From IMG/VR virus record IMGVR_UViG_3300024348_000017, positions 26,869 to 90,868 of that record: DNA of 64,000 nt, one strand, 5' to 3'. Origin of the DNA: a virus. The position numbers were made by a program, and so were the translations under genes. Positions within the stretch are counted from its first letter, which is position 1. The number at the start of each line of letters is the position of its first letter. Shown piece by piece: positions 11,530 to 36,985 of the stretch. The notes below the pieces were generated by a model. That model had not been told where the DNA came from. It ran no database searches and saw only the letters and a list, made by a program, of their open reading frames with translations.

Positions 11530-11931
11530 CTATTGTTCTGCCACCCACTTACCACTATCAATCAATTTAAATTCATCACTATTTCTATCTATGAATTGAT
11601 ACGTTGCTGATTGTAAATCAAAATGTTCATTGATATGATTTAATACTTGCTCAGGTGTAAAATCGGAGCAGCTGTATAAATCGAATTGAAACATTGATGG
11701 ATGTATTGCATCCCAAACATGTATTGAGGCGTGGGATGTAGCTAGTGTTACTGTACCTGTTATTCCCTCATTTCCAAGTTCATTAACATATACTGAGGTA
11801 GGTCCTGCTACAACTACCATTCCGACTTTATTTACTAATTCTCTAAACCATTGGTTTAGTATTTCTTCTGACTTTGGTGGGTTAATAATATAACCCTTTA
11901 CTAGTAGGTGGATGTGATTCGGTACGAACAT
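11530..11931 (-). CDS. speD: S-adenosylmethionine decarboxylase family proenzyme (pyruvoyl-dependent)
   Basis: HLLV, GITGTVTLATSHASIHVW, DLYSC motifs. Confidence 0.85.
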   Translation of the reverse strand: MFVPNHIHLLVKGYIINPPKSEEILNQWFRELVNKVGMVVVAGPTSVYVNELGNEGITGTVTLATSHASIHVWDAIHPSMFQFDLYSCSDFTPEQVLNHINEHFDLQSATYQFIDRNSDEFKLIDSGKWVAEQ

Positions 11932-12560
11932 TACTTAAACTTAAATCCTGTTAATTTTTCAACATCAGTAACACTAACCTTATTATTGGTGATACCGTCT
12001 GCTTTAGTTGTATTGTTATCAAATATAAATGCCATGTATTCTTTTGTCTTCTTAGTATAAACTACTTTCCAACATTGGGTTGGTACTGATGTAGTGCCTA
12101 TTTTATTTGCTACGCCTATTGACCCAGCCCAAACATGCACTGAATCCTCTTTAAGTGCTGTTTCACGAGATAACATTTCCAATGTTTTCCAATCCCCACG
12201 ATTTAAAGCAGGGTATTGAGCAGTCATATTACTGAAATAAAATGATTCGTCGTTTGCTACTTGATCGCATGAAGCGTCAGCGGCTGGAAAATTATGTCCA
12301 CGATCGAAACCAGCGCCTGTATAGTCTGATTGTAAATTTGTTTCAGTTGGTAATTTAGGATCAACAATAAATTTATCACCACGTTTTGCCTTAACAGGAC
12401 ACGTTAGTGATGCTTTTGTAATCCACCATTCAACTTTAACTGGGTAGTGTTTTGATTTGCTGTAATGCGTTGTGTACGCTTTGTGTGTTAGTATAACTAC
12501 ATCTTGAGCTGTAACTGTAAAACTAACTAATAGTAATAAGGCTAATAGGCATTGTTTCAT
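11931..12560 (-). CDS. exported DNA/RNA non-specific endonuclease (NucA/EndA type)
   Basis: signal peptide, DRGH catalytic motif, SNMTAQYPALNRGDW. Confidence 0.9.
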   Translation of the reverse strand: MKQCLLALLLLVSFTVTAQDVVILTHKAYTTHYSKSKHYPVKVEWWITKASLTCPVKAKRGDKFIVDPKLPTETNLQSDYTGAGFDRGHNFPAADASCDQVANDESFYFSNMTAQYPALNRGDWKTLEMLSRETALKEDSVHVWAGSIGVANKIGTTSVPTQCWKVVYTKKTKEYMAFIFDNNTTKADGITNNKVSVTDVEKLTGFKFK

Positions 12561-13317: not shown

Positions 13318-13599
13318 TTAATTTAAATATTTTGAATCTGATATTTTTAACCCACAATATAAATCTAACATTCTCATTTCACGATCAGCTAGATACTTAT
13401 TGTAACGATGCTTTTTCATTATGAATTTAGTACCCCAATCTCGCCATTCCTCATTTTGGGCTTCAGTCATTGTGTATTGTTGATACCAATTATCCTTTCT
13501 ACTTTCAACATCTTCAAATTTAAGATCGTGACCTGCTATTTCAAACATCTTATCGATTAGTTCTTTTAATACTAACTTATTTTTATCTGCTCGTTTCAT
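13318..13599 (-). CDS. hypothetical protein
   Basis: 93-aa ORF. Confidence 0.6.
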   Translation of the reverse strand: MKRADKNKLVLKELIDKMFEIAGHDLKFEDVESRKDNWYQQYTMTEAQNEEWRDWGTKFIMKKHRYNKYLADREMRMLDLYCGLKISDSKYLN

Positions 13600-16038: not shown

Positions 16039-16557
16039 CTAATCCCACCATTTTTCAATATTTTCTTCTAATATGTTAAATAATAATCGTCTTGCTCTTA
16101 AATGATTTATATGAGCTATGTTTATAGCTATTCCTGCTTTAGTTTTCTTCTTAAATGGAGGTTTCTTCATTGCTTTAACAGCAATCCAAATACGAGGATA
16201 CTTAATAAAGTAATCATCAAAATGTTCATTTAATTCCTTTAAATCCCATTCATAACTACCTGGATGTGATTCGCTTGGTGTAAATACAGATTCTGTTTGA
16301 TGATAATCATTATATTCATGTAAATAATATTCTGTTTGTAATTTATCAATTAGACGAGTACATAGCATCATTATTTCAGCATCGCGTTTAGCACTAACGT
16401 GTCTGTCTTTAGTACCAATATATTTTGCTTGATTCTTTAATTTGAATTTAAGTATCTCCCAAATATAATGATCATCCCAATCCTGGTCCTTCCATATAAT
16501 GGGTAACCAACGATATAAATTGTATATGCGTTTAAAGAATTGTTTTACCTTGTACAT
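16039..16557 (-). CDS. hypothetical phage protein
   Basis: 172 aa, WKDQDWD and C-terminal WWD motifs. Confidence 0.6.
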   Translation of the reverse strand: MYKVKQFFKRIYNLYRWLPIIWKDQDWDDHYIWEILKFKLKNQAKYIGTKDRHVSAKRDAEIMMLCTRLIDKLQTEYYLHEYNDYHQTESVFTPSESHPGSYEWDLKELNEHFDDYFIKYPRIWIAVKAMKKPPFKKKTKAGIAINIAHINHLRARRLLFNILEENIEKWWD

Positions 16558-16612
16558 AACATGAATTTAAAACAGAAATTTGGCCCTACCAAACAGGTAG
16601 AGCCATAATCAC

Positions 16613-16774
16613 TTACTTAGTTACAGTTGTATCAACTACTGCTGTAGTTGTATCAGATGTTACTACTGTTGAATCTACTGCTACGGCAGTTGAATCTGTT
16701 GTTGATACTTCAGTTGAAGCACCACCACATGCTACCAATGTAGCGATTGCGAAAATTGCAATTACTTTTCTCAT
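16613..16774 (-). CDS. small Bacteroidota-type lipoprotein (not in ORF track)
   Basis: MRKVIAIFAIATLVA-CGGASTEVSTTDSTAVAVDSTVVTSDTTTAVVDTTVTK; lipobox and four D-S/T-T sequons. Confidence 0.75.
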   Translation of the reverse strand: MRKVIAIFAIATLVACGGASTEVSTTDSTAVAVDSTVVTSDTTTAVVDTTVTK

Positions 16775-16832
16775 AGTGTAATTTTTGTTTTATTATAATT
16801 AAATATACAACCGAATTTTGCCCAAACCAAAT

Positions 16833-18242
16833 TTATAATTGAAGTCTTGAACCAATCATAAAGAAACTAAGTATGGGTGTACCGGGCACGGTTGATATGC
16901 TGGCTTTGTAATCGATGTTAAATCCAAATCTTTTACTCAATTTAAAACTATATCCTGTGCCTACCAAACCCATTACATTATAGTTCCAAGAGCTTCCCGA
17001 TTTGCTGTTGTAAGCGTAGGGCGAGGCCATCAGGAAGACTCCTGGAGATAAGGTTGATTTTAGACTTATTTGGTATGGTTTAGTCCAGAATGCTGTTGTT
17101 GACGACATCATTGAATATGAGTAACCATCTACTTCTTTTAATTTAATGTTAATAACTGATAAGTTGTAACCATACGTACCTAATTTTGGATGTGGTATAA
17201 TATGAGTATAACCACCGAAAGTCATATGGGTACCTGCAACGTAAGCGACGGTATATGAGTAAGCATCTATTGATTTGAGTGCTCCGTTCTTAAAATTCAT
17301 ATCGCTTTTATTCGCAGATAAAGCGAATGATTTTAAATCAGCCCATATCATACTCGATACGCCCCAACTCGATTCACCTGTAGCGGATGCTTGAGACATA
17401 CTCAATGATATGACTGGTGTGAACCCACCTGTAGCGTTTTGACCTACTGTTAAGTCAGAACCTATCATTATGGGATTCATTACTGCTTTTTTCTTTTCTT
17501 CCTTTTTATCTGATTTCTTTTCTTCTTTCTTTTCCTCTTTTTTCTCTTCTGATTTACTTTCTTCTTTCTTTTCTTCTTTAGTTTCTGATTTACTTTCTTC
17601 CTTTGATTCGGTTTTTGATTCGCTCTTACTTTCGGTTTTGGTTTCGGTTTTGGTTTCGCTGCTTGAACTGCTTCCTCCGCTGCTGCTCTCCGAGCTTGAG
17701 CCTGATGATGAGGAAGATCCAGATGAAGATGAAGATTGGGATGAAGATGATGATGATTGGGAAGATGATGACTGGGATGATGTACCACTCGATGCTGCGG
17801 CTCCTGAACCTGCTGAAGACGCTCCTGCTGAAGCGGCTCCGCTTGCTGCTCCTGAAGCCGCTCCTGAAGCGGCTCCACTTGCTGCACTTGATGCTGCTGA
17901 TGAAGCTGCGGATGCTGCTGCTGAGGCTGCTGCTTGTGATACTGCCTGAGTCACCGTCTGTGTTACCACGGGGGTTGATACGGGACATGCTAATGTATTG
18001 TAGGATGCATACGTTGCTTGAAGCCAAGCTTGTAATTCTCCATTTGTTACTTGCGCTGATGTAAATGTTTTGATTTGTCCATAGAAGGAAACGACAGCGT
18101 TTCCATTAACCATTGTAGTTGTAGCTACTTTAGTTTGACCAGTGCATTTGTCAATAAAGGTTTGAGTATAGACTTGTCCGTTCGCTGTTTTAGCGAATAA
18201 ACATATAACGATTAATATTAAACTTATTAACCATTTCTTCAT
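16833..18242 (-). CDS. exported protein with Ala/Ser and Glu/Lys stalk and C-terminal outer-membrane beta-barrel
   Basis: signal peptide, low-complexity linker, amphipathic strands ending FMIGSRLQL; paralogous motifs with 22191..23084. Confidence 0.7.
   Translation of the reverse strand: MKKWLISLILIVICLFAKTANGQVYTQTFIDKCTGQTKVATTTMVNGNAVVSFYGQIKTFTSAQVTNGELQAWLQATYASYNTLACPVSTPVVTQTVTQAVSQAAASAAASAASSAASSAASGAASGAASGAASGAASAGASSAGSGAAASSGTSSQSSSSQSSSSSSQSSSSSGSSSSSGSSSESSSGGSSSSSETKTETKTESKSESKTESKEESKSETKEEKKEESKSEEKKEEKKEEKKSDKKEEKKKAVMNPIMIGSDLTVGQNATGGFTPVISLSMSQASATGESSWGVSSMIWADLKSFALSANKSDMNFKNGALKSIDAYSYTVAYVAGTHMTFGGYTHIIPHPKLGTYGYNLSVINIKLKEVDGYSYSMMSSTTAFWTKPYQISLKSTLSPGVFLMASPYAYNSKSGSSWNYNVMGLVGTGYSFKLSKRFGFNIDYKASISTVPGTPILSFFMIGSRLQL
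17490..17945 (-). repeat. low-complexity coding repeats (ASGA, SSSSS, KEEK)
   Basis: tandem imperfect codon repeats within the 469-aa gene. Confidence 0.8.
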
Positions 18243-19066
18243 TACTTATTATTCAATCCAATTGAAATTTGAGAATACTTCCTAATTGGGTCAGTATCTA
18301 ATTTTAATGTGAACCATTTGAAATCTCTTATTAATCCGACTTTAAATGTAGTAAATGATGTGTTTGATTTTGGAAATGATATACCACCAATAGCATCTTT
18401 ACCTTGCCATCTAATAATTTCATTGCCAAATCCTACCATACCGTGTATTCCAATTTTACCAATTCGTTTACCTCCACCAACATATAAAGTTGATTCTTTT
18501 TTCCAATCGTTTTTACTAAGTGGGAAATCAACATTATTGATTTGACCATATGGATAATAGCTATTTTGGTCTATTGCATAAGTCATTACATAATCCATAA
18601 TGAAATATCCTTTCTTACCACCCACTACTCCCCAATAAGATATTTGTTTATTATTTGTATGTCCAAATCCAAAGGATGTATAAACTCGTTCTTTTCTAAC
18701 AGTATCTCTTCTACCACTTTCGTATATGTGAATTACACTTCTTTGTCTCCATCCTAAATCATCATACCAAATGTAAGGCATTGGTTGATACCATCCGTAG
18801 TTACCCCAATAATAACCAAACTGATTAGGGCCGTTCCAATTTTGAATACCACCCCTACCACGTGGTGGCAATGGTTGTGATTCTTGTGGTGGATTATTTC
18901 TCCAATTACTCACATTATTTTGTGGTAATGTAGGGGTTTGAACTCTTGACTGTGTTGCTTGAGACGTTTGTGCTGCTGGAGTACTTCCACCAGTTTGTCT
19001 CCAAGTTGATACTTGTGAAAAAGATATCATTGGAATAACCAACAATAAAACTAATAATTTTTTCAT
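18242..19066 (-). CDS. exported protein with disordered N-terminus and small C-terminal beta-barrel
   Basis: signal peptide, Q/P/N-rich region, Tyr/Trp/Gly stretch, alternating Gly/aromatic strands. Confidence 0.6.
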   Translation of the reverse strand: MKKLLVLLLVIPMISFSQVSTWRQTGGSTPAAQTSQATQSRVQTPTLPQNNVSNWRNNPPQESQPLPPRGRGGIQNWNGPNQFGYYWGNYGWYQPMPYIWYDDLGWRQRSVIHIYESGRRDTVRKERVYTSFGFGHTNNKQISYWGVVGGKKGYFIMDYVMTYAIDQNSYYPYGQINNVDFPLSKNDWKKESTLYVGGGKRIGKIGIHGMVGFGNEIIRWQGKDAIGGISFPKSNTSFTTFKVGLIRDFKWFTLKLDTDPIRKYSQISIGLNNK

Positions 19067-19069
19067 AGT

Positions 19070-19786
19070 TTAGTTTTTAAATACACCCTTCTTAATCATA
19101 CGAGGTAATATACGAGCACAAGCAATATCTAATGCTTTTTTAGTCGCAATACTAACTGTAGACTGATTAAATTTAACTGGGTCTATTGTTGCGTCTGATA
19201 ATATTGTTAATTCTCTTGTTGTTTTGGCTTCACCTAAACCCGATGCTGCTATAATTTCTCCTGTTTCAGCATCTGTAAAGCGTACTTGCAACCCTAAACG
19301 TGTAACCATTGTATTTTTAACTCCGTTTGATAAGTTTACTTCTTCATCATCTGAAACTGACCAATCGTATACTTCAATTTCAACGAAGTAATGAGCTAAT
19401 CTAATTTTACCTCTACCATCTAATTTATCTTGAGAAATCCCAGCGGCTGACGCTTGGAATTGTTTTACCATTCTATTTTTAATTTCTGTTTTATCTTCTG
19501 TAAACGTAAAGCGATTAAGATTTTCAAGATATTCAAGCGTGATGTTAGCAACGCCAAGGCCCACTTTCTTTTCCTTGAGTTCAGGATACGACTCATAAAG
19601 ATCATCTCCGATACCACATTTAAGAATTTGTATTGGTATCGTTGGTCCTTCATAATTTAAAAATTGACTAATGTCTATTTTGGTTTCGAATGACGCTTTG
19701 AACTGTTCTGTCTTCGTGCTTCCTATAGTTTGAGCACCCACATTTATGGTCAATAACAGACCTAATAATATTAATAAACTTTTCAT
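19070..19786 (-). CDS. CsgG/HfaB family protein
   Basis: signal peptide; GLGVANITLEYLENLNRFTFTE, LGLQVRFTDAETGEII, C-terminal ATKKAL helix match the CsgG pattern. Confidence 0.75.
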   Translation of the reverse strand: MKSLLILLGLLLTINVGAQTIGSTKTEQFKASFETKIDISQFLNYEGPTIPIQILKCGIGDDLYESYPELKEKKVGLGVANITLEYLENLNRFTFTEDKTEIKNRMVKQFQASAAGISQDKLDGRGKIRLAHYFVEIEVYDWSVSDDEEVNLSNGVKNTMVTRLGLQVRFTDAETGEIIAASGLGEAKTTRELTILSDATIDPVKFNQSTVSIATKKALDIACARILPRMIKKGVFKN

Positions 19787-19800
19787 ACATAAATTTAATT

Positions 19801-19826
19801 TAAAAAAGGGAACCGAAGTTCCCTTT
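19801..19826 (-). terminator. rho-independent terminator
   Basis: AAAGGGAAC-TTCG-GTTCCCTTT followed by U-tract on the minus strand. Confidence 0.85.
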
Positions 19827-19833
19827 AGTTTTT

Positions 19834-20073
19834 TTAATCTTCTTTTTTCTTAGAGCTAAACTTATCGAATGTATCAGCACCCATCCCAATACCAGTAATA
19901 ATCATTACTGCATTTACTAATTCAGCTGATGGGGCGAAGTCTGCATGTGAAAATGAATTTAACATCATTGTAATACATAAGAACATTGCACCCACAAACG
20001 CTATAACTGGTTTTACTGAAATAGCGCCTCTTTCATCTTTAAATAAATCAATCACCCATTCTTTGAAATTCAT
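19834..20073 (-). CDS. 2-TM membrane protein (holin-like)
   Basis: two hydrophobic helices, charged C-terminus. Confidence 0.55.
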   Translation of the reverse strand: MNFKEWVIDLFKDERGAISVKPVIAFVGAMFLCITMMLNSFSHADFAPSAELVNAVMIITGIGMGADTFDKFSSKKKED

Positions 20074-20094
20074 ACTTTTAATTTTTAATTGTTA

Positions 20095-20703
20095 CTAATG
20101 AGAGTCATCGTGGAAGTCTTTTAATAGACCGCAATTTTGACACTCTAATTCACCATCGTTATCGGCATCACCCCAAACATGTTTACATTGTCTGTGTTCG
20201 TGGTGTTCGAATTCTAATTTTTCCATCTCTTGCTCATGTTCTTGAGCATCTTTAGCTATATCTTGATCATGTTCTTGTTGATCTTTTTTCAACTCAAACT
20301 TTTGTTTGTTCTCAGTTACGGCTAAATCTCTTGCTGCTGCAGCACCTTGAACGAATGCATCTGGGATTAATGGAGTAAATGGTCTGTTACTTTCTTTTAT
20401 GTCATTAACACTACCTAATGCTACACCATCTTCCTCATCCATCTTTTGTACTAACATTTTATCCTTATCAGTGTCACTAAACCAATAGTCTATGATTTTA
20501 CCATAGCTACCAATAAAGGCACCTAATAACAATAATAATAATTCTTTCCACTCTCCTTCTATTGATGATTTACTTAATATAGCGAAGAACATTCCTCCTA
20601 TAATAAATAAAAATCCACCTAATACCATAGCGGTAATATACCATCTACGGCTCATCATTTTAATTAATAAATCTTTAAATCCTGTTGGAGTTTGATCTGC
20701 CAT
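20095..20703 (-). CDS. 2-TM protein with coiled coil and C-terminal Zn-ribbon-like motif
   Basis: two TM helices, IIDYWF, CxH...CxxC. Confidence 0.6.
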   Translation of the reverse strand: MADQTPTGFKDLLIKMMSRRWYITAMVLGGFLFIIGGMFFAILSKSSIEGEWKELLLLLLGAFIGSYGKIIDYWFSDTDKDKMLVQKMDEEDGVALGSVNDIKESNRPFTPLIPDAFVQGAAAARDLAVTENKQKFELKKDQQEHDQDIAKDAQEHEQEMEKLEFEHHEHRQCKHVWGDADNDGELECQNCGLLKDFHDDSH

Positions 20704-20772
20704 TTTTATATGCTTTATACGATAATAAACTAATTAATATAATAAAGAACACTACTGTTCCTATCTTATATC

Positions 20773-21078
20773 CTACCATTGTGCTGGTTTTTCTTTAAAC
20801 TCATCACCGTCTTTTTTCTTAACTGGAGCTGCTGGTTTTGTTTCTGCTGTTTTTTCTTTAATGATTACGGTTTTACCACCTGCTGCTTGAGACTGTTGGT
20901 TGCTGTTAGTAATATTAATTACTGGGGCTGCTTGTTGTACTGGAGCTGCTTCATCACCACCACCTGTTAATTTATTTGTAATAAATCCACCTACACCTAG
21001 TGTAACTGTACTTACTAAACCGATGATAATGTTTTTAAATGATTTACCAGTTGATTCTTGTTCTACTTCTTCTGCCAT
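20773..21078 (-). CDS. membrane-anchored low-complexity protein
   Basis: one TM segment, PVINITN, Q/A/P/K-rich tail. Confidence 0.6.
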   Translation of the reverse strand: MAEEVEQESTGKSFKNIIIGLVSTVTLGVGGFITNKLTGGGDEAAPVQQAAPVINITNSNQQSQAAGGKTVIIKEKTAETKPAAPVKKKDGDEFKEKPAQW

Positions 21079-21138
21079 TTTTATTTTTTTTTATATTTTT
21101 TTAATTTATTTTAAACTCAATAAAACTACCCAAACCAA

Positions 21139-21459
21139 TCACCAAATTGGGAGATTGACAAACCAATCACCAAATTTAGTTAAAAAACTACGATTATCAG
21201 TTTCATCATTTAAGTTTTGTTTACAAACATCACAACCACATTTTTCTCTTACCTGTTTCCAATTAATATCTGCTAAAACCTCATACCATATATGATTTTT
21301 ATCAGGGTGTTGATGAATGAATTTTATTGCTGCTGGTGTGAGTGCGTGTGTATCACATGCTGAACCAGGTCCGTCTCCACCAAATCCATAATATCTTACA
21401 TAATTTTCACCACAATCTGAGCAGTTATATACTATATCGTCTCCGTTTTTCTTTGCCAT
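21139..21459 (-). CDS. Cys-rich hypothetical protein
   Basis: CxxC and CxCxxC motifs. Confidence 0.55.
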   Translation of the reverse strand: MAKKNGDDIVYNCSDCGENYVRYYGFGGDGPGSACDTHALTPAAIKFIHQHPDKNHIWYEVLADINWKQVREKCGCDVCKQNLNDETDNRSFLTKFGDWFVNLPIW

Positions 21460-21470
21460 AATTTTTGCTT

Positions 21471-21851
21471 TTATATTTTGTTAAAATCTGTTATTCCTAA
21501 TTGATTACCATTAGCATCGAATAATCCTATTCTATATGCTGATGATGGTAATGCTGATGTATATACTTTTAAGATGTTGTCTCCAACAACTACGTTTACT
21601 GTTTCTTTTGATACTACTCTATTTGAAATATCAAATATTTTGATTGTAACTGATTGAGCTACATTACTTTTAACATTCATAGCAACCTCTGAGGTTACGA
21701 ATGGTGTTTGTAATTTAATACCTACCGCGCTAGCTATTTTTAATTCAGCATTAGCTGTAGGTGGTTGGGGTGTAGGTACGTCTACTTTTGTACATCCTGC
21801 AAATAGAATAATCGCAACCGCTATTGTACATAATTTCTTCATTGTATTCAT
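21471..21851 (-). CDS. lipoprotein with Ig-like (T9SS-CTD/FlgD-like) domain
   Basis: lipobox FAGC; VTIKIFDISNRVV...LPSSAYRIGL pattern. Confidence 0.65.
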   Translation of the reverse strand: MNTMKKLCTIAVAIILFAGCTKVDVPTPQPPTANAELKIASAVGIKLQTPFVTSEVAMNVKSNVAQSVTIKIFDISNRVVSKETVNVVVGDNILKVYTSALPSSAYRIGLFDANGNQLGITDFNKI

Positions 21852-21852
21852 T

Positions 21853-22191
21853 TTAATTAATTTTAATGGTCGTTTTACCTATCTGAGTACGGGATTGGTC
21901 TTCCAATACTAGATATAAATATTTAACGGGTAGCGAACTAGTGTATATTTTCAACTTGTTTTGTCCTACTTTACCACTAATGCGCTCTCTTGTTATTACG
22001 TTTTGAGTTTGATCCAACATTGTTAAAGTATATGTACCTGCCGTCTTTAAATCGAAATAAATATCACCACCATTCACCACGGTTGATTCAGCAACACTGA
22101 ATATATCTGCTGTAATGGGTTTTGGTTCAGGTCTAACTTCTACTTTTCTACAGCTAGACAATAATAGCAATATGACTAGTAATTTTTTCAT
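21853..22191 (-). CDS. lipoprotein, paralog of 21471..21851
   Basis: lipobox LSSC; GQNKLKIYTSSLP vs GDNILKVYTSALP. Confidence 0.65.
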   Translation of the reverse strand: MKKLLVILLLLSSCRKVEVRPEPKPITADIFSVAESTVVNGGDIYFDLKTAGTYTLTMLDQTQNVITRERISGKVGQNKLKIYTSSLPVKYLYLVLEDQSRTQIGKTTIKIN

Positions 22192-23084
22192 TAAAATTGG
22201 AAATTTGTTCCTATCATAAATAGGATTGGGTTACTCTTTTTATATCCAACCGATTCACTTAATTTATCCCAAGTTGTGTTATATCTGATATTGGTATTTA
22301 ATATAAATCTTTTAGTTATTTTCCAATCAATAGATGTACCATAATATAAGTCTAAATTGAAATCATTTAAGTATCCTATATCTGATGCCGTACCATCTTT
22401 AAAATCTTTGTAGATATCACTCATAGCAAATACTTGTGGTGATATGTTTACCCTCTTTGTTTTGAATGTATATGTGTACATTGCCATACCTCTATAAGTT
22501 ATTTGAGATGATGATGGCATTATTGGATAAATTAAATCTACAAAATTACCATCTACATCTACTGTATATTTTCCTTCCCACTCACCTTGATATGTTCCCC
22601 AAAATGTTTTTGAGGCAATTAAACTATATCCAAATGTTCCAAACTTTTTAGTTCTAAATACATCTATAAATGATAGTGTAATATCTTTTTGGAAATTAAA
22701 ATCAGTTGAATAGAATGATTGTAATGTAGTTGTTCTTGTATCTGTATTTCTACTGAAGCCATATCCCACACCATAATAATTCCATATTGGGTTTATTGAT
22801 GATGCTAATGAGTGGGCCCATTTACCATTATTAGATGTTTTACTATATCCTAAATTTAAGGTGGTAGATACTTGCTTTCCAATTATACCTACTGAAAGGT
22901 TTGATGATGATAAAACATCTTTTGAAAAATCAATATAAGACTCCAATATACCTAAGTTATTCCAATCACTACTTTCTCCAAATAATTCTTTTGGTGTTAG
23001 TTGTAATGTATCAGGCTTTTGTATTTGTGCATTTGCTACAAATCCAATTAAAACTAACGATATGATTAATAATAATTTTTTCAT
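22191..23084 (-). CDS. outer-membrane beta-barrel protein
   Basis: signal peptide, amphipathic strands, terminal Phe (IGTNFQF) like a BAM beta-signal. Confidence 0.7.
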   Translation of the reverse strand: MKKLLLIISLVLIGFVANAQIQKPDTLQLTPKELFGESSDWNNLGILESYIDFSKDVLSSSNLSVGIIGKQVSTTLNLGYSKTSNNGKWAHSLASSINPIWNYYGVGYGFSRNTDTRTTTLQSFYSTDFNFQKDITLSFIDVFRTKKFGTFGYSLIASKTFWGTYQGEWEGKYTVDVDGNFVDLIYPIMPSSSQITYRGMAMYTYTFKTKRVNISPQVFAMSDIYKDFKDGTASDIGYLNDFNLDLYYGTSIDWKITKRFILNTNIRYNTTWDKLSESVGYKKSNPILFMIGTNFQF

Positions 23085-25000
23085 TATTTTACTTTAACTT
23101 TTAATGTTGTACCTGCTTTATTAACGGCATCAGTTGCACCTATTGAAATTAAACCCAATATATTATCAAGCTTAGTTGTTGATGTGAATGTTATTTTATA
23201 TTCAGTGGTGTTATCTAAGGTAGTATTACCATCACTTATTAATGAACCTAAATTAATATAAGCACCTTTATCAGTTGCATAGTTAGTAGGTGAACCTTTA
23301 GTAGTAAATTGTATTCCTTTAAACTTTAAGACTGAATTATCATAATTTAATTGGAATTGAGTTCCAACTACATTTTGTTGTAGTGGATCTAATGTAATAT
23401 AAGCATAAATACTATCACCAATCACTTCAGTCATTATTAAAGCATTAATTTCATTACTAATACTCATTCCCCTAACTGACATTGTTGTTAGATTATTTGA
23501 TTTAGGTGTTGTTGAATGAGATAAGTTTACATCACCTTTCCAAGCCATTGTTAAGTTTAATGTATCGGATGATTTACCTGTGTTTATATCAAATGAATAC
23601 CCACTACCCAATGGTGTTGTAAATGTAGTCCAATTAGATTTACCAATACTATCATATTTTGTTTGTGGTATAATTCTTAATGTTTTATTAAGATTAAATG
23701 TATCAACTAATGTTTTAGCGCCTGTTAAGTTTTGCAATAAAGCGAAACAATCAGCCTCATTAAAGTAACCATCACTATTTACATCAGCATTCTTATATTG
23801 AATACCATATCCAAATTCGTTTCCACTTTGGTTTCCAAATATACCACCATTTGCTAATTCCTTAAAAGCTAAATAAACGTCTGATACTGTTACAATACTA
23901 TTATATAAAGTTGTTAAATTATTTGTAGTAGTTGTAGTTATTGATTGTGTTTTGTATGTAGATAATTGTGAAAATGTAAATTCTGCTTGTAATCCATAAA
24001 ATCCATTTCCTGCTCTTATATTTGATGCGAAAGTAGAACCTGAAAAGTTAAATTGTGTGGGGGTATAAACATAAACTTCTGTCCAACCATTAGCATCGTA
24101 TGAATTAAATGTTACCGGCCCATCCCATAAATCAAATAATTGTAAATTACTGATTGATGATGGTGTAGATAATATACCATTTACTTCTCTACTATCAATA
24201 CCAATTCTATATCTTTGATTGGTTGCATCGTATTGATATATTACACACCACTCTACTCCACCACTAGTTGTTAATGCTTTAACTCCACTTGCTACTTTGG
24301 TACTATCTAATAATGTTGTTATATCAACTGAACCTGCTGAACTTAATGCTGAACCTATTGCAAATGTTGTTGCTGTTAGGTTGGTATTCAAATTAAAATT
24401 TGCTACTGCTTTTTTAGTAGGTGTATTATTAATATTTGTTACTTCTTCATTCCAATATGAGTATGTATTTGGTGCACTTGGTCTTGACCATCTCACAAAT
24501 AAAGCATCACCACCACCATATTCTTGATACCTTGTAACTATCTTATATCTTGTACCAGCAACCATATTTTTTGAACCATATTGATATCCACTAGCACCAT
24601 GCCCACCATAGTAAGTTGATATTATTGTTCCGTCTACTGATATATCGCTCGCATCATCTGAATTGATTCCAAATCTATAGGTTCCTGTTTGTGTTGGTAT
24701 AAACCAAAATTCAAATTTAATTGCATAGAAATCACCTCCCCAATGTGGGGTTTGAATTGAACCATCACACATAATATTAAGAGCAACTTCACCTGTATGT
24801 GTTATAGTTGTATTTGAGTTTGCCGTATTTAACATATTGTCAAATTCGGCAGCCGTATTTGCGTGGTATGGATATTGGGTTATACTCCCGTTTCCATTAT
24901 GTGTTTTGTAAGAGGTATAATTAACGTACCCCCAACCCGATTGAGCTAAAGATACGTTAGTTAATAGGAAAGCTAATAATATCGTAACGAATCTCTTCAT
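23084..25000 (-). CDS. exported PA14 + dockerin-like + cohesin-like protein
   Basis: TGTYRFGINSDD...YQEYGG (PA14); ADVNSDGYFNEADCFALL (dockerin/EF-hand-like); VVGTQFQLNYDNSVLKF (cohesin-like). Confidence 0.7.
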   Translation of the reverse strand: MKRFVTILLAFLLTNVSLAQSGWGYVNYTSYKTHNGNGSITQYPYHANTAAEFDNMLNTANSNTTITHTGEVALNIMCDGSIQTPHWGGDFYAIKFEFWFIPTQTGTYRFGINSDDASDISVDGTIISTYYGGHGASGYQYGSKNMVAGTRYKIVTRYQEYGGGDALFVRWSRPSAPNTYSYWNEEVTNINNTPTKKAVANFNLNTNLTATTFAIGSALSSAGSVDITTLLDSTKVASGVKALTTSGGVEWCVIYQYDATNQRYRIGIDSREVNGILSTPSSISNLQLFDLWDGPVTFNSYDANGWTEVYVYTPTQFNFSGSTFASNIRAGNGFYGLQAEFTFSQLSTYKTQSITTTTTNNLTTLYNSIVTVSDVYLAFKELANGGIFGNQSGNEFGYGIQYKNADVNSDGYFNEADCFALLQNLTGAKTLVDTFNLNKTLRIIPQTKYDSIGKSNWTTFTTPLGSGYSFDINTGKSSDTLNLTMAWKGDVNLSHSTTPKSNNLTTMSVRGMSISNEINALIMTEVIGDSIYAYITLDPLQQNVVGTQFQLNYDNSVLKFKGIQFTTKGSPTNYATDKGAYINLGSLISDGNTTLDNTTEYKITFTSTTKLDNILGLISIGATDAVNKAGTTLKVKVK

Positions 25001-26658
25001 TATTCAACTATTAATTCTATCTTTTTACCAGTAGCATCAACTGCATCTGCTAATACTGTATAGAATAAACCTGCAGTGTTACTTAGAGGTGATTTAGAAG
25101 TAAATATTAATTTATATGGAGTACCAACTTTAATTCTAGCTGTCTTTAATTGATCAATTGAACCAAATGTTAACCTACCATTATCATGTGTTGAGAAATT
25201 TGTAACTGTACTTCCAGCATCAAATATAACATCTGTTAATGTTAATTTAGTACTATCGTATTGCATGATTACTTCTAAACCAGCTAAATCAGCTTTAGTT
25301 AAGCTTGCTGATAATGTTACTTTATTATTTTCAACTGTAGATGTTAAGCTTAATGTTGCTTTTTCTAAAGCTTCAGTAGCGTAAGCCATACTGCTAAATG
25401 ATGCTGTTCTTATAGTTTCACCTGGGTTAATTGAATTATAATAGTTACCGCTTGATATTCTTGAAGCAATAGTATCAGGATGAGATGAGTGTGACCAATC
25501 TAAATCACCACCCCAAGCAAATACAGCGTCTACTGTTTGAATTGGAGTTGCAATTGTTACTTTATTTGTTTGTCCACCATCTAACCAAGTTTGATTTAAT
25601 AAACCACTATAGTATCTTACTGATGTGGATGTTGATTTAGGAACAGATGCTTTAGAAGTTACATCTATACCCATTACATGAGCAAATAAGTAGTAACCAT
25701 CACTTTCACCAAATGTGGAATTACTTAATGTTATTAAACCAATTCTTTTCTCTAATACAGGCCTAGTAAAATATGTTGAGGTACCAGTAATATCAGTTTG
25801 AGTATGTCCTAAAAATGCCTTATAAGCATCTGATACTGTTATAATATTATTCATCCAAGTTTTAGTCATTGCAGGTGCAATAAATACACCTAAACTATCT
25901 CCAACTTTAATCCCTGATGTGAATATTGCTTCACCACTAGCATCTAATGCTTTAGTTTGTATTGGTTGTTGAGTCCAATCAATACCACCACTACCATCAG
26001 TTTTTAATTTCATTAATTGAACTGAATGATCACCAATATTGTAATTTGAAGGAAATAATACTCTAACTTTAAATTGAGATGTATTACCACTTACACTCGA
26101 TAGTGATACTTTACCTGTTGTAGTTGTGATTGGAGCAATATAAGCTGATGTATCATCAATAGCATATGATAAGTCTAATTTATGAATGTCAGTATAATCA
26201 GCCAAATCTTTAATTACATATTTTTGTGTTGCTATAATTCCATCAACACTAGCATCAGTTCTTTGTACTGTTAATTGACCAATATTCCAATCTGAATTTG
26301 AAACATAAGACCAAGGTGTAGCTAAATATTGTGCGTATAAACTTGTTGCAACTATACTATTTGCTGTACTTGCTGTAAATTTATAAGATGACCAATTTGT
26401 ATAATATGTTTGCACTGCACTACCTTGTGACCAGGTTGTTGATACATAAGCTAAAGCTTTGTTATTAAATTGATATCTTAACCAATAATAACGTGGTTTA
26501 GTTGTACCCTTAGCTACAGTGTACTTAATTTGAATAGTATCACCCACCTTATAAGGTGCTGCTGTTACTACTGCTTGGTTTACTGTTAATTGTGCGTTGG
26601 CTGTTAATGACAGCATAGATACTGCTAGTATCCCTAAAATTGTTAATAGTTTTTTCAT
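25000..26658 (-). CDS. exported cohesin-like/dockerin-like protein, paralog of 23084..25000
   Basis: KVGDTIQIKY..YQFNNKALAY and LAGLEVIMQYDSTKLTL cohesin-like; ITVSDAYKAF; shared AWxGDxxxSHS motif. Confidence 0.65.
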   Translation of the reverse strand: MKKLLTILGILAVSMLSLTANAQLTVNQAVVTAAPYKVGDTIQIKYTVAKGTTKPRYYWLRYQFNNKALAYVSTTWSQGSAVQTYYTNWSSYKFTASTANSIVATSLYAQYLATPWSYVSNSDWNIGQLTVQRTDASVDGIIATQKYVIKDLADYTDIHKLDLSYAIDDTSAYIAPITTTTGKVSLSSVSGNTSQFKVRVLFPSNYNIGDHSVQLMKLKTDGSGGIDWTQQPIQTKALDASGEAIFTSGIKVGDSLGVFIAPAMTKTWMNNIITVSDAYKAFLGHTQTDITGTSTYFTRPVLEKRIGLITLSNSTFGESDGYYLFAHVMGIDVTSKASVPKSTSTSVRYYSGLLNQTWLDGGQTNKVTIATPIQTVDAVFAWGGDLDWSHSSHPDTIASRISSGNYYNSINPGETIRTASFSSMAYATEALEKATLSLTSTVENNKVTLSASLTKADLAGLEVIMQYDSTKLTLTDVIFDAGSTVTNFSTHDNGRLTFGSIDQLKTARIKVGTPYKLIFTSKSPLSNTAGLFYTVLADAVDATGKKIELIVE

Positions 26659-27312
26659 TTATTTTTCTCCTAATAGTTTAGTGACTAATTTATCACAACC
26701 TTTCTTAATAGCGTTACTAAGACTTGTTTGATTGAATTTACCACCCTCATCTACTATAAGAGTCGACATAGAGATTTCAGATGATGATTCTTCAACTAAA
26801 ACCTCTTTTTCTTTGATACCATCTTTGTATAAAATACCTTTTAAACGAATTACAACTTCTTGTTCGTTTTTATGAAACACAGATACGTTCTTTTTTGTAG
26901 TTAGAACGTCTAGATAAACAATTTCAACACGTAATTTATTCTCAGCATCTGGGGATAAATCATATCCCTTTTCCTGAATATATTCTTCTAAAATATTTTT
27001 AACACCGAATTCTAAATTGCGGTTACCTGCTAATTTACCAATAACAACTTTATTAGTAACTTTCTCAACATAAATATGTTCAGATGCATTATACCAAATA
27101 TTACCTGGGCTATTTTTAAAAGTACCATCGAATCTCCATGAAAATTCATTGGCTAAATGTTGCATATATTCTTCTTTTCCAGAGAATTGAAGAACTACGA
27201 AGAAAATTTGTGTAATTAATGCAAGACCTATAAATAATCCTACACCTAATAAGAATAATTGAAATAATCGGTCGCGTAGACTGATGGCCAGACTGATAGC
27301 TTTTTGCTTCAT
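26659..27312 (-). CDS. membrane-anchored CsgG/TolB-N-like protein
   Basis: N-terminal TM; FGVKNILEEY helix; FNQTSLSNAIKK resembles FNQSTVSIATKK of the CsgG gene. Confidence 0.55.
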   Translation of the reverse strand: MKQKAISLAISLRDRLFQLFLLGVGLFIGLALITQIFFVVLQFSGKEEYMQHLANEFSWRFDGTFKNSPGNIWYNASEHIYVEKVTNKVVIGKLAGNRNLEFGVKNILEEYIQEKGYDLSPDAENKLRVEIVYLDVLTTKKNVSVFHKNEQEVVIRLKGILYKDGIKEKEVLVEESSSEISMSTLIVDEGGKFNQTSLSNAIKKGCDKLVTKLLGEK

Positions 27313-27338
27313 CTTTTAATTTTTAATGTGGTTCGAAT

Positions 27339-27346
27339 ATAAATAT
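27339..27346 (-). promoter_or_regulatory. ATATTTAT promoter-like element heading the exported-protein block
   Basis: same octamer precedes about 10 genes in the window. Confidence 0.55.
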
Positions 27347-27347
27347 G

Positions 27348-27377
27348 CAAAAGAAAGCAACCATTTCTGGTTGCTTC
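27348..27377 (-). terminator. terminator ending the tRNA/tmRNA transcript
   Basis: AAGCAACCA-GAAA-TGGTTGCTT followed by TCTTTT. Confidence 0.8.
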
Positions 27378-27429
27378 GTAAAAGGCCCACTCTGAGCGCC
27401 CTGATCGCGGGAAGGGGAATGGACTCTTG

Positions 27430-27800
27430 TGGAGATGACGAGAGTCGAACTCGTGTCTCAATAATGAACAATAATACCAACGTCTCACACGCTTAGCTCA
27501 CTGATTAACCCCAGTGCATGAGGTATAGGGCCACAAGTTTTTGGTCTTAGTGACATCCACCACCTAGTTTTAATCTAAACTAAGAAAATCTAGCTTGTAA
27601 CTTCTGTTCCTAGGATGTTACACCCGACGCTATTTAAGCCGCTAATGCGTACTCGTTCGCACCTACGAAAGACATCATATCTTCGAAGGTCATAGTAGAT
27701 AATTCTACAGTTATTGTTTCGCAAGGTTTTAAGGACTTATCTTACTTTGTCCGCGTGTGGTACTACCTTCAGATTACTGATCAAATACCGGTACATCCCC
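27430..27800 (-). ncRNA. ssrA: tmRNA
   Basis: GGGGAUG/CAUCUCC acceptor stem with G3-U70, T-arm ACGAG-UUCGACU-CUCGU, tag ORF ending YALAA at 27634-27708. Confidence 0.93.
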
Positions 27801-28223: not shown

Positions 28224-28224
28224 G

Positions 28225-28310
28225 TGCCTCAGGCGAGAATCGAACTCGCACTCGCGTTGCGGCGAACAGGATTTTAAGTCCTGCGTGTCTACCAATTTCA
28301 CCACCAAGGC
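28225..28310 (-). tRNA. tRNA-Leu(UAA)
   Basis: class II cloverleaf, CAGGA-CUUAAAA-UCCUG. Confidence 0.95.
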
Positions 28311-28370
28311 ATGAGACCCGATATCCGCGTTTTCATCTCACTCGGGTCATGATGAGCTTCCGACGGTTTG

Positions 28371-28526
28371 CTGTAGGGGCTGGAATCGAACCAGCACGCT
28401 GCAATTCAATATAAGACAATTAAGCCGGCTTTGTGGTCAACCCATATCTTACATCTATCTCTTATCAGCACCCACGAGACGAGTGGGCACGTCTACCTTG
28501 ACTGCCGTCATTTCCGCCACCCTACA
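28371..28526 (-). ncRNA. aberrant tRNA-like RNA (GUC in anticodon position, enlarged D-loop and variable arm)
   Basis: acceptor UGUAGGG/CCCUACA, T-arm GCUGG-UUCGAUU-CCAGC, CCCAC-UCGUCUC-GUGGG arm. Confidence 0.75.
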
Positions 28527-28529
28527 GTA

Positions 28530-28763
28530 TTAAACCCATCTATTACCATTTCGGCGTTTAGCTTCTTCAGCTTCTTTAACTCCTTTAACCATTTTAATCC
28601 AGGTTAAAGATACGTCAACAGGAGCTAATACCCAAGCCATAACTAAAACCATTATAGCATCCATTTCTGGGGAGGTTCCGAAATCAATTCCTCTTGTTTT
28701 ATATTTTTTATTTAACTGATAGAAACAGTAAATAATACAAATAATGTAATAACCTAATAACAT
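28530..28763 (-). CDS. small membrane protein
   Basis: two hydrophobic segments; likely start MLLGYY. Confidence 0.5.
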   Translation of the reverse strand: MLLGYYIICIIYCFYQLNKKYKTRGIDFGTSPEMDAIMVLVMAWVLAPVDVSLTWIKMVKGVKEAEEAKRRNGNRWV

Positions 28764-28767
28764 ATAA

Positions 28768-28977
28768 CTATTTTTTAAAGTATTTTTCAAGTGCATCTAT
28801 CTTATCATCAGCATCAACTAACATTGTAAGTGCTTCTTCAGCATTACTATAGAAGTCTTTTGTTGAATGATCACCAATACCAACAGCGTGATTAGATAAT
28901 AAATCTAAACTTAATAATGCTTTTGATTTTTCAGCTATTGCTGATGCCATAAGCATGTCAAATAATTCTTTTTTCAT
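28768..28977 (-). CDS. conserved small phage protein (VGIGDH motif)
   Basis: 69 aa, AVGIGDHS motif. Confidence 0.6.
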   Translation of the reverse strand: MKKELFDMLMASAIAEKSKALLSLDLLSNHAVGIGDHSTKDFYSNAEEALTMLVDADDKIDALEKYFKK

Positions 28978-28990
28978 ATTTTTTATTTTG

Positions 28991-29075
28991 CGGAAAGACA
29001 GGGATTCGAACCCCAGAACCTGTTACAGTTGCCAGTTTTCAAGACTGGTGCATTCAACCACTCTGCCATCTTTCC
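28991..29075 (-). tRNA. tRNA-Ser(UGA)
   Basis: class II cloverleaf, CCAGU-CUUGAAA-ACUGG, G73. Confidence 0.95.
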
Positions 29076-29080
29076 AAGAG

Positions 29081-29178
29081 GATGAGGTTTAGCGGCCAAC
29101 TAAACAAAGTTACTACTTGCTCTCACCTCGAGTTACACGTGACAGTTACGGGTGAATAGGGTTTCGTCAACACTCATC
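29081..29178 (-). ncRNA. putative structured RNA between tRNA-Thr and tRNA-Ser
   Basis: GAUGAG/CUCAUC closing stem and internal hairpins. Confidence 0.35.
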
Positions 29179-29182
29179 TTTG

Positions 29183-29255
29183 ATCCAGAAATAAGAATCG
29201 AACTTACGACCTACTGATTACAAATCAGTTGCTCTACCTGCTGAGCTATTCTGGA
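29183..29255 (-). tRNA. tRNA-Thr(UGU)
   Basis: cloverleaf, ACUGA-UUUGUAA-UCAGU; U1-A72 first pair. Confidence 0.92.
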
Positions 29256-29259
29256 GTTT

Positions 29260-29344
29260 AGAGGATAGGCTCCGCGCCTCTACTAGGGGTTTCCTAATAG
29301 CGTAGACTTTCATGTTATTACCTTCGCATGCTCTCCTACCCTCT
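29260..29344 (-). ncRNA. putative structured RNA (three-way junction)
   Basis: 10-bp closing helix with a G-U pair only on the minus strand. Confidence 0.5.
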
Positions 29345-29353
29345 TTATATTTT

Positions 29354-29459
29354 TAGGAAAGTAGAAGATGGGTGCGTGGACATCTACTTTTACGATTGGC
29401 ATTTCTAACCGATTATATCCGCCCTTCCTACAGTTAAAGGATACGTCCCAATCAACCTA
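29354..29459 (-). ncRNA. putative structured RNA
   Basis: UAGG/CCUA, GAUUGG/CCAAUC and AAAGUAGA/UCUACUUU helices. Confidence 0.55.
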
Positions 29460-29466
29460 ATATCAT

Positions 29467-29537
29467 AACAACTACCTACAATTTTTTAAAGTCGCCTCCT
29501 CGTCATGCGATGGTTATACCTGCGGCAGGTAGTTATT
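29467..29537 (-). ncRNA. putative structured RNA
   Basis: 13-bp closing helix with two G-U pairs on the minus strand. Confidence 0.5.
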
Positions 29538-29542
29538 GTTTG

Positions 29543-29614
29543 TTGCGAGAGAAGGATTCGAACCTCCGACCCCTAGGTTATGAGCCTAGTGAGCTACCCC
29601 TGCTCTATCTCGCG
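29543..29614 (-). tRNA. tRNA-Met(CAU), initiator-like
   Basis: C1:A72 mismatch, CUAGG-CUCAUAA-CCUAG. Confidence 0.92.
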
Positions 29615-29619
29615 GTTTG

Positions 29620-29691
29620 TACTTCCAACGGGATTTGAACCCGTATTACTTCCGTGAAAGGGAAGTGACCTAACCCTTAGTCGATAGAAGC
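29620..29691 (-). tRNA. tRNA-Glu(UUC)
   Basis: cloverleaf, CUUCC-CUUUCAC-GGAAG. Confidence 0.93.
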
Positions 29692-32003: not shown

Positions 32004-32546
32004 TTATTCAAGGATCTCATCTACTAAGCCATATCTCTGTGCTACTTTAACATCGAAATACCATTCAGCTTGTTTATCCCTGTGTGGTTTTAATATCTTA
32101 TCTGTGAACTTTGTTTTAGACATAAAGTAAGCATCACACACTTTATCAATACGCACACACTCAGCTAATTCTTGTTTATGAAATGCTACTTTACCTTCAA
32201 CTTCATAATTACCCTCGTGGTACATGAATGTAGCATATTTACTAGCCTGTCTAACATGGCCCGCCGAGAATACTACTAACCCCATTGACATTGCATGACC
32301 ATGACATATTGTGTGGATTGGAGTCTGCGAAGAATCAATTACATCAATTAAAGCCATCCCATTATATATCTCTCCTCCAGGTGAGTTGATAATGAGTTTT
32401 ATTGGGTCTACTATTTGCTTTTTAGCGTCCTCAGCATTAATCTCATATATATCCTGTATGATTTCGTTAACTGTTAGACCATCAATGTATCCTAATGTTA
32501 TAACTCGACTTAACGGGTCTAATTTGGAACGACGCTCTCTTGCCAT
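32004..32546 (-). CDS. clpP: ClpP-family protease subunit
   Basis: LIINSPGG, AMSM (catalytic Ser), FMYH (His), YGLVDEI. Confidence 0.88.
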   Translation of the reverse strand: MARERRSKLDPLSRVITLGYIDGLTVNEIIQDIYEINAEDAKKQIVDPIKLIINSPGGEIYNGMALIDVIDSSQTPIHTICHGHAMSMGLVVFSAGHVRQASKYATFMYHEGNYEVEGKVAFHKQELAECVRIDKVCDAYFMSKTKFTDKILKPHRDKQAEWYFDVKVAQRYGLVDEILE

Positions 32547-32582
32547 AAATTATAAATTTTCTCTTATAAATATAAGTCCAAA

Positions 32583-36360: not shown

Positions 36361-36361
36361 T

Positions 36362-36980: not shown

Positions 36981-36985
36981 TATTT

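Follow-up and report, generated by a model that had tools for sequence, protein, structure and literature searches.

A conserved, envelope-targeted gene block combining a CsgG-like protein with lectin-cohesin proteins in phages of aquatic Bacteroidota

We analyzed a 64,000-nucleotide stretch of viral DNA (hereafter the window; positions 26,869 to 90,868 of IMG/VR record IMGVR_UViG_3300024348_000017) and show that a block of 14 co-oriented minus-strand open reading frames (ORFs), extending from position 16613 to position 27312, is a conserved and abundant phage module targeted to the host envelope. The block includes gene 19070 (genes are named here by their lower window coordinate), whose product has the fold of CsgG according to its structural model, together with secreted proteins that combine lectin, cohesin and dockerin-like domains, small lipoproteins resembling the sorting domain of type IX secretion systems (T9SS), as well as a YajG-like protein. 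Since 2020, the CsgG operons of phages have stood as an unexplained curiosity; the present work puts them into a broader context, in that a far larger envelope-directed module of very abundant aquatic Bacteroidota phages has the CsgG-fold protein as its best conserved component. Because 19070 is tied to lectins, cohesin/dockerin domains and type IX signals, our data point to host-surface manipulation and not to curli production. We tentatively read the block as a lectin scaffold of the host envelope or surface, a functional reading to which we assign a probability of about 0.4.

A conserved block of envelope-targeted genes

Based on a crude rule—simple hydrophobicity of the N-termini—13 of the 14 block products start with a signal, a lipobox or a membrane anchor, compared to 16 of 132 ORFs elsewhere on the 90.9-kb contig (Fisher p = 6.7e-10), so that envelope-targeted products cluster far beyond chance. 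This agrees with a first-pass annotation of the window, made from the sequence alone, which had described all but one of the products (the exception being 21139) as carrying such elements and had taken them to argue against virion proteins; in support of the latter point, the large tail proteins of the same contig lack signal peptides under the hydrophobicity rule. The same annotation was right about ~14 co-oriented genes coupled by overlapping stop and start codons: one base is shared at four junctions (18242, 22191, 23084, and 25000), and most other neighbors lie 0 to 3 nt apart. Its upstream limit of 27346 has to be corrected, as this position falls in the spacer before the transfer-messenger RNA (tmRNA) gene and the block's earliest start codon lies at 27312. 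Terminator-like hairpins on the minus strand mark both boundaries, one at 27354 to 27377 (10-bp stem and T-rich tail) between the tmRNA gene and the first block gene, and the other at 16581 to 16605, directly after the last block gene; a further minus-strand hairpin with a T-run at 19805 to 19826, between 19834 and 19070, could act as a terminator or attenuator inside the block. Matches to promoters of the sigma-70 type numbered fewer than in shuffled sequences and are therefore uninformative on expression timing.

The block is widely conserved. Among IMG/VR contigs, 509 encode a relative of 19070 and 92 a relative of 22191. We fetched 160 loci, of which 100 span the block—as defined by the presence of 26659, 19070, and 16833—and 73 of these 100 are strictly colinear, which answers in the affirmative the first-pass annotation's question of whether gene order is kept in related viruses. 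In these 100 loci, the remaining genes range from near-universal to rare: 20773 is present in 97%, 23084 in 93%, 25000 in 79%, 20095 in 78%, 21471 in 71%, 21853 in 70%, 22191 in 50%, 19834 in 46%, 18242 in 35%, 16613 in 20%, and 21139 in 17%. General searches of the block proteins were silent, with no PHROG match for any of them, only low-complexity noise in NCBIfam, and no megablast match of the block to phage records.

Among 50,697 phage records, the CsgG-like gene was found only in Flavobacterium phage vB_FspM_immuto (160 kb; host Flavobacterium sp. LMO8, Baltic Sea), and the host of this closest cultured relative bears out the earlier assignment of the window to a Bacteroidota phage. Immuto has a reduced block, gp013 to gp019, whose genes lie side by side, adjoin replication genes, and all carry signals. 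Here, gp013 is a C-type lectin (57 bits); gp014, also with a signal, separates it from gp015, which joins a signal to a cohesin domain (36.7 bits) and the T9SS sorting domain Por_Secre_tail (34.6 bits), both over cut-off; gp016 is a transmembrane (TM) protein like 20773 and stands directly before gp017, the CsgG-like protein (53% identity); and gp018 and gp019 are the 16833-like and YajG-like proteins, the latter being a 26659 homolog with 27% identity. Because this cohesin protein of the relatives has an above-threshold T9SS sorting domain, we expect it to be displayed on the cell surface; and because the cultured pair of immuto and Flavobacterium sp. LMO8 carries the core of the module, its function is directly testable. 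A third viral lineage (L167 to L171, e.g., L170:4733-12206) is more distant and has a reduced block around a lipidated CsgG-like gene, in the order ~950-aa secreted protein with sub-threshold matches to cohesin and to the T9SS C-terminal domain (CTD), ~285-aa barrel-like protein, TM protein, lipidated CsgG-like protein, 16833-like protein, small secreted protein, and TM protein. Together, the immuto and third-lineage gene sets define a deep core consisting of a cohesin/lectin protein, a small TM protein, and the CsgG-like, 16833-like and YajG-like proteins.

CsgG-like, YajG-like, and putative barrel proteins

Gene 19070 (19070 to 19786) encodes a 238-aa protein with a cleavable signal of the signal peptidase I type and no lipobox, and is the best conserved gene of the block, with a median identity of 79%. 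The protein itself has no match in Pfam (E <= 0.1), PHROGs, NCBIfam, or PDB sequences, including phmmer and profile searches, and only 208 relatives were recovered when 1.84 billion representatives were scanned in full with HMMER. Among 39 aligned full-length family members, 20 match Pfam CsgG (PF03783; best 1.9e-17) and 7 match LpoB; membership of 19070 in the CsgG superfamily is thus transitive, since its homologs, and not the window protein, match Pfam CsgG. The AlphaFold (AF2) model (predicted local distance difference test [pLDDT], 82) leads to the same family, with a Foldseek E of 1e-7 and TM score of 0.54 against CsgG, and a VIA Z of 13.3 (root mean square deviation [rmsd], 3.2 Å over 183 aligned residues spanning residues 38 to 238). 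Lower VIA scores were obtained for PelC (9.8, 3.5 Z units behind CsgG), FlgT (8.9), and LptE (8.7).

CsgG, the channel through which bacteria secrete curli (type VIII secretion), forms a nonameric ring in which two transmembrane hairpins per subunit build a 36-strand pore. Although identity is limited to ~11%, CsgG (PDB 4uv2, 4uv3, and 6l7a) is the closest structural match of 19070, and the two share an alpha/beta core as well as two long beta-hairpins, which in the monomer model of 19070 have strands of 16 to 19 residues where CsgG has its transmembrane hairpins. CsgG is lipid-anchored, whereas 19070 and the phage copies of its lineage lack the lipobox cysteine and have a signal ending in AQ or SQ; the cysteine is present in distant homologs and in the third viral lineage. 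Outside phages, the CsgG-like domain shares a polypeptide with caspase-like (HC-dyad) modules or with an N-terminal Ser/Thr kinase plus TM helix in the cellular proteins P0105, P0109, and P0131. Because of the caspase-like and kinase fusions, this CsgG-like subfamily appears to serve also as an extracytoplasmic module of signaling or death proteins.

The first-pass annotation had counted two CsgG-like proteins, which holds for 19070 in view of its fold and family matches but was not borne out for 26659 (26659 to 27312; 217 aa), a core gene whose product has an N-terminal membrane anchor and no lipobox. Judged by its sequence, 26659 is a protein of the YajG/Lipoprotein_16 type: it scores 24.1 bits against PF03923 (cut-off 25), its relatives fall into 4164 clusters, and most of the 120 listed relatives are annotated as PF03923. 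Its alignment with the 19070 family is limited to a 22-column motif, G-x-G-V-x-N-x-L-E-E (hhalign probability, 9.6%), and any fold that the two may have in common would be a distant one. No match was found for 26659 among PDB sequences by phmmer or profile, and the ESM Atlas had no model of 26659 or 22191. In Escherichia coli, YajG is an outer-membrane lipoprotein that copurifies with LptDE (PMC12065857). An LptD/LptE-like reading of the block was considered and rejected, given the lower score of LptE compared to CsgG and a C-terminal domain of 16833 (~215 aa) judged too small for a plug.

The core gene 16833 (16833 to 18242) encodes a secreted 469-aa protein and always follows the CsgG-like gene, as do its homologs in immuto and in L167 to L171. 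Its product consists of an N-terminal domain of ~70 aa with two conserved cysteines, a low-complexity linker of ~170 aa that is rich first in Ser/Ala and then in Lys/Glu, and a beta-rich C-terminal domain of ~215 aa; in the third lineage, the linker is short and acidic. The accessory gene 22191 (22191 to 23084) encodes a secreted 297-aa protein that is a stand-alone homolog of this C-terminal domain (hhalign probability, 97%; E 8.7e-11, in the comparison with the 16833 family). We regard both as putative outer-membrane barrels. The C-terminal F-x-F of 22191, which ends in ...IGTNFQF, fits a beta-signal, its Atlas feature neighbors are outer-membrane barrel families (at 0.93 only), and there were single weak matches to OMP_b-brl and DUF5777; the 22191 and 16833 families have no profile matches in Pfam or PDB, and a test for period-2 hydrophobicity did not separate the putative barrels from controls. 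A third barrel had been proposed for 18242 (18242 to 19066), an accessory gene for a secreted 274-aa protein rich in W, Y, and Q, which is unrelated to both 22191 and 16833. Thus, of the three barrels claimed, none was confirmed by a family or structure match, the homology between 22191 and the 16833 C-terminal domain being what we can add. As a separate observation, the ~285-aa protein of L167 to L171, which directly follows the large cohesin and CTD protein, has the N-terminal pattern NxFTLNPSxxSAGxGN, which we take to recall T9SS barrels of the PorP/SprF type; Pfam gave no match.

CsgG genes in other phages have been discussed in two contexts. Pelagimyophages (e.g., HTVC008M) encode CsgF and CsgG plus three more genes, proposed to aid uptake or "sibling capture" (PMC7029224), and the "curli operon" of these phages and of the OM43 phage Melnitz consists of CsgF, CsgG, a curlin-associated protein, and two hypothetical proteins (PMC7029224, PMC9004378). 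In Melnitz, csgGF lies just downstream of thyX and the tmRNA gene and was proposed to time lysis; clumping was not observed (PMC9004378). The block described here resembles these operons in that a lytic myophage carries a CsgG-superfamily gene, absent from the host, among genes for secreted proteins, and, as in Melnitz, the tmRNA gene is directly upstream. The differences are more numerous: (i) the relationship between CsgG of HTVC008M and the 19070 family is no more than a distant one (hhalign probability, 31%; E 5e-4; 161 columns); (ii) the operon partners in HTVC008M are unrelated to 16833 and 26659, and CsgF is absent from our block, where Pfam, NCBIfam, and PHROGs gave no match to CsgA, CsgB, CsgE, or CsgF; (iii) the block additionally contains lectin/cohesin/dockerin proteins, CTD-like lipoproteins, a YajG-like protein, and putative membrane tethers; and (iv) it belongs to phages of Bacteroidota. 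We therefore rejected its assignment to the pelagimyophage-type curli operons, as the partners are unrelated and the only cultured relative infects Flavobacterium. The block is a phage CsgG operon variant with a much richer and different composition than the published ones, which qualifies the earlier claim that it had no described precedent: phage CsgG/CsgF operons are in print (PMC7029224, PMC9004378), and the combination of lectin, cohesin, CTD-like and YajG-like components was not found in the literature searched. Nor did we find, with incomplete coverage of the literature, a paper on a phage module that combines lectins and cohesin/dockerin domains with T9SS elements. Single-gene envelope morons of phages, such as T5 Llp, lambda Bor and Lom, and Cor, encode lipoproteins or outer-membrane proteins that alter the cell surface and block receptors. 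Those comprise one or two genes, compared to 10 kb and up to 14 genes here.

Lectin-cohesin proteins, lipoproteins, and small membrane proteins

The largest lectin-scaffold protein of the block, 23084 (23084 to 25000; 638 aa, secreted), consists of a PA14 domain (residues 22 to 193), a beta domain (230 to 355), a dockerin-like helical segment (363 to 451), and a cohesin domain (513 to 638). The PA14 domain claimed by the first-pass annotation was confirmed by a Pfam match over the cut-off (PF07691; 32.2 bits, cut-off 24) and by its fold, with VIA Z values of 14 to 15.5 against the PA14 domains of Flo1/Flo5, Cea1, and Marinomonas MpIBP. Cohesin (PF00963) remains under its cut-off in Pfam (21.7 bits compared to 24.1), and the model shows the nine-stranded jelly-roll of a cohesin (pLDDT ~88 for this domain), matching many type I cohesins with VIA Z values of 14 to 15.1 and an rmsd of 2.0 Å over 121 to 125 residues, and with Foldseek TM scores of 0.65 to 0.69. 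The AF2 model as a whole has a pLDDT of 75, and its beta domain is modeled confidently. For the dockerin-like segment (PF00404; 14.5 bits, cut-off 22.9), the calcium loop DVNSDGYFNEAD at residues 406 to 417 is intact and conserved in the family (D406, N408, D410, N414, and D417), following the DxNxDGxxNxxD pattern of known dockerins; the model of this region has a pLDDT of 57 to 79 and no structure match. The neighboring gene 25000 (25000 to 26658) encodes a secreted 552-aa paralog with a signal peptide, an unassigned beta-rich N-terminal part, a degenerate dockerin-like segment, and a C-terminus that we assign to the cohesins by paralogy; its last ~280 aa align with those of 23084 and have invariant columns in common, its dockerin-type loop is degenerate, it has no Pfam match, and its family has none among PDB sequences. 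Two cohesin/dockerin proteins had been claimed; the cohesin fold of 23084 and the paralogy of 25000 sustain the cohesin half of this claim, and the dockerin half is reduced to one intact repeat accompanied by a degenerate one.

Searched against PDB sequences by phmmer and profile, the 23084 family gave only weak C-type lectin matches, and its members do differ in their heads. Among 37 distinct 23084 homologs in related contigs (L005 to L162), 28 carry a C-type lectin with a W..GEPN motif and are ~760 aa long; the other 9 are ~630 to 650 aa long and lack W..GEPN, 5 of them fitting a crude PA14-type pattern. This suggests that the sugar-binding head is exchangeable on a conserved dockerin-cohesin body and, since heads are swapped between close relatives, that the ligand is probably a strain-variable host glycan. 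The domain folds of 23084 are those of the adhesins Flo1/Flo5, Epa1, and MpIBP and of noncellulosomal cohesin-dockerin proteins. Unlike in known cohesin-dockerin systems, however, the cohesin and the dockerin-like segment lie on one polypeptide, are encoded by a phage, include only one intact dockerin repeat, and come without enzyme cargo.

The claim of two Ig-like lipoproteins was borne out to the extent that 21471 (21471 to 21851; 126 aa) and 21853 (21853 to 22191; 112 aa) are paralogs with sub-threshold matches to DUF3244 (12 of 28) and Por_Secre_tail (PF18962; 9 of 28, best E 9e-4), and without any match among PDB sequences by phmmer or profile. In 21853, a single Ig-type domain resembling the T9SS CTD and DUF3244 follows the lipobox, and in both lipoproteins this CTD-like domain is the whole mature protein, not a tail on cargo. 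The lipobox cysteine is invariant in both families and is followed by x-K-x-D/E, which we take to resemble the surface-export signals of Bacteroidota lipoproteins. With respect to T9SS cargo, immuto gp015 is arranged as signal, cohesin and CTD, and the large third-lineage protein resembles it, with scores under threshold. In the window, no CTD terminates the cohesin proteins, and the CTD-like domains follow a lipobox without any cargo.

Three small proteins are candidates for the inner membrane. The core protein 20773 (20773 to 21078; 101 aa) has a short N-terminus, one TM helix, and a tail rich in P, A, Q, and K that ends in W; 20095 (20095 to 20703; 202 aa) has two TM helices, an acidic coiled region, and a C-terminal Cys/His motif; and 19834 (19834 to 20073; 79 aa) has two hydrophobic helices and a charged C-terminus, is holin-like in shape only, and has no PHROG match. 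Two accessory genes complete the block. The 106-aa, Cys-rich product of 21139 (21139 to 21459), without a signal, is probably outside the machinery. The 53-aa mini-lipoprotein 16613 (16613 to 16774) is rich in Thr, Ser, and Asp, resembles immuto gp030 ("YcfL"), and contains four D[ST][AILMTV] motifs, a number reached by only 0.4% of shuffles; this motif is the O-glycosylation sequon of Bacteroidota, and 16613 could be a small glycosylated surface lipoprotein.

Readings of the block and its genomic surroundings

If the block acts as an envelope or surface lectin scaffold, its parts might be ordered as follows. Expressed as a pair of operons, the products would be exported via the host Sec, lipoprotein and, in relatives, type IX routes to the envelope of the infected Flavobacterium-type cell. 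A ring of 19070 would sit at the outer membrane, together with the beta-rich proteins 16833 and 22191 and the YajG-like 26659, with 20773 and 20095 tethering it to the inner membrane. The lectin-dockerin-cohesin proteins would be held on or in the envelope, possibly chained by cohesin-dockerin contacts, and their heads would bind a host surface glycan that is probably strain variable. The likeliest pay-off would then be masking of receptor glycans, leading either to superinfection exclusion or to progeny being spared adsorption to infected cells and debris, with cell-cell adhesion as a close alternative. Both the assembly of the products into one complex and the pairing of cohesins with dockerins are inferred here. 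The first-pass annotation had proposed a dedicated envelope complex, and the conserved, envelope-targeted module upholds that part of the proposal; a single complex and roles in adhesion, masking, or exclusion stay conjectural. A stronger version, which we consider possible although on the unlikely side, is a multipart envelope machine in which the CsgG-type ring, together with barrel and YajG-like proteins and inner-membrane tethers, anchors or exports a self-assembling, "cellulosome-style" coat of lectin-cohesin-dockerin proteins on infected flavobacteria, with exchangeable heads tracking the host surface. Such a machine, if real, would be a new class of phage takeover of the host surface, widespread in abundant aquatic Bacteroidota phages, and lectin heads that mask receptors or glue cells together would change the picture of superinfection, of phage-host networks, and of particle formation by aggregation in lakes and coastal waters.

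Several observations weigh against a lectin scaffold at the surface. The phage copies of 19070 lack the lipid anchor of CsgG, and the tips of their hairpins are acidic; the barrels are putative; and the dockerin is half degenerate, the first repeat of 23084 being a helix only. Caspase-like domains and, behind a TM helix, a Ser/Thr kinase are fusion partners of the CsgG-like subfamily, and such fusions are easier to reconcile with a periplasmic domain for oligomerization or binding than with an obligate pore in the outer membrane. Finally, without a T9SS CTD, 23084 and 25000 have no evident way across the outer membrane and may stay periplasmic.

Among the alternatives, we would place first a periplasmic complex, an explanation that we find unlikely. 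Its lectins would bind peptidoglycan, lipopolysaccharide precursors, or periplasmic glycans, and the CsgG-like, YajG-like, and CTD-like lipoproteins would stabilize or rewire the envelope from the inner face of the outer membrane, or decoy CTDs would jam the host T9SS/gliding apparatus, a frequent receptor route of flavobacterial phages. Such a location is consistent with the lack of a CTD on the window's cohesin proteins, with CTD-like domains that occur as stand-alone lipoproteins, with the kinase and caspase proteins of cells, where the CsgG-like domain is fused to periplasmic parts, and with the fold that 19070 has in common with PelC, LptE, and FlgT, which are located under the outer membrane. 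On the other hand, the cohesin protein of the relatives has a true CTD, the K..D/E pattern after the lipoprotein cysteine presumably marks surface export in Bacteroidota, and swappable lectin heads suggest a variable ligand on the outside, all of which favor the surface scaffold.

The invariant and translationally close succession of CsgG-like and 16833-like genes in three lineages raises the question of whether 19070 is a channel for its neighbor. It would then export the unfolded Ser/Ala/Lys/Glu-rich part of 16833, anchored by the C-terminal domain, as a hairy or adhesive coat that aggregates cells, in line with the "sibling capture" hypothesis published for pelagimyophages (PMC7029224). The ~170-aa low-complexity segment suits such a role; its short and acidic counterpart in the third lineage does not, nor does the absence of matches to CsgA, CsgB, CsgE, or CsgF in the block, and pore formation by 19070 is itself conjectural. 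Given also that Melnitz showed no clumping (PMC9004378), we hold fiber secretion to be rather improbable.

Slightly more doubtful still is a lysis or egress device, with 19070 as an outer-membrane pore or "pinholin/secretin-like" trigger and 19834, 20095, and 20773 as holin- or spanin-like partners. Class II holins are matched by 19834 in size and shape, 20773 has an extended tail and the topology of type II membrane proteins, and the position just downstream of the tmRNA gene recalls Melnitz, where a lysis role was proposed for phage CsgG (PMC9004378). However, no PHROG holin or spanin match was obtained in the block, no endolysin lies in or beside it, the immuto endolysin gp236 has no homolog on this contig, 19834 is present in fewer than half of the loci (46%), and lysis has no use for lectin, cohesin, or CTD-like parts. 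That the products are virion proteins or unrelated, merely co-located morons is very unlikely: phage particles often bear lectin and Ig-like domains and several block genes are accessory, but signals on 13 of 14 products, an order kept in 73 of 100 loci, a core shared by three lineages, and a location away from baseplate and tail genes, adjoining replication or early genes, all speak against it.

The surroundings of the block confirm the first-pass view that the genome is that of a phage. The source is a single 90,868-bp virus record with every gene on the minus strand, encoding a DnaB-type helicase, a B-family DNA polymerase, ribonucleotide reductase, GroEL, ligase, and a UvsX/RecA-like recombinase, with a primase and a gp6-like baseplate wedge protein upstream of the window. 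As no terminal repeat and no capsid or terminase genes were found on the contig, it is probably a fragment. The phage fits the immuto-like group, which has genomes of 155 to 190 kb and DNA polymerases of the A, B, or C family (bioRxiv 10.1101/2024.04.26.591309).

Downstream of the block, 16039 to 16557 and 13324 to 13548 (both minus strand) encode homologs of immuto gp234 and gp235, which flank the endolysin gene gp236. Further along, 11931 to 12560 (minus strand) encodes a 209-aa protein with a signal peptide that matches nucleases of the Serratia/EndoG type (PDB 1g8t; E 3.8e-15); its homolog in immuto, the NUC1 nuclease gene gp012, immediately precedes the lectin gene gp013. The tmRNA gene directly upstream of the block (27429 to 27800, minus strand) has the tag ANEYALAA and is followed upstream by five tRNA genes (28224 to 29691). 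A few kilobases upstream of the block lies a minus-strand sugar-modification cluster (32004 to 40072) that comprises genes for a ClpP-like protease (32004 to 32546), a GT2 glycosyltransferase (32583 to 33365), an NAD-dependent epimerase (33365 to 34240), a methyltransferase-like protein (35106 to 35690), and two more glycosyltransferase-like proteins (37293 to 40072).

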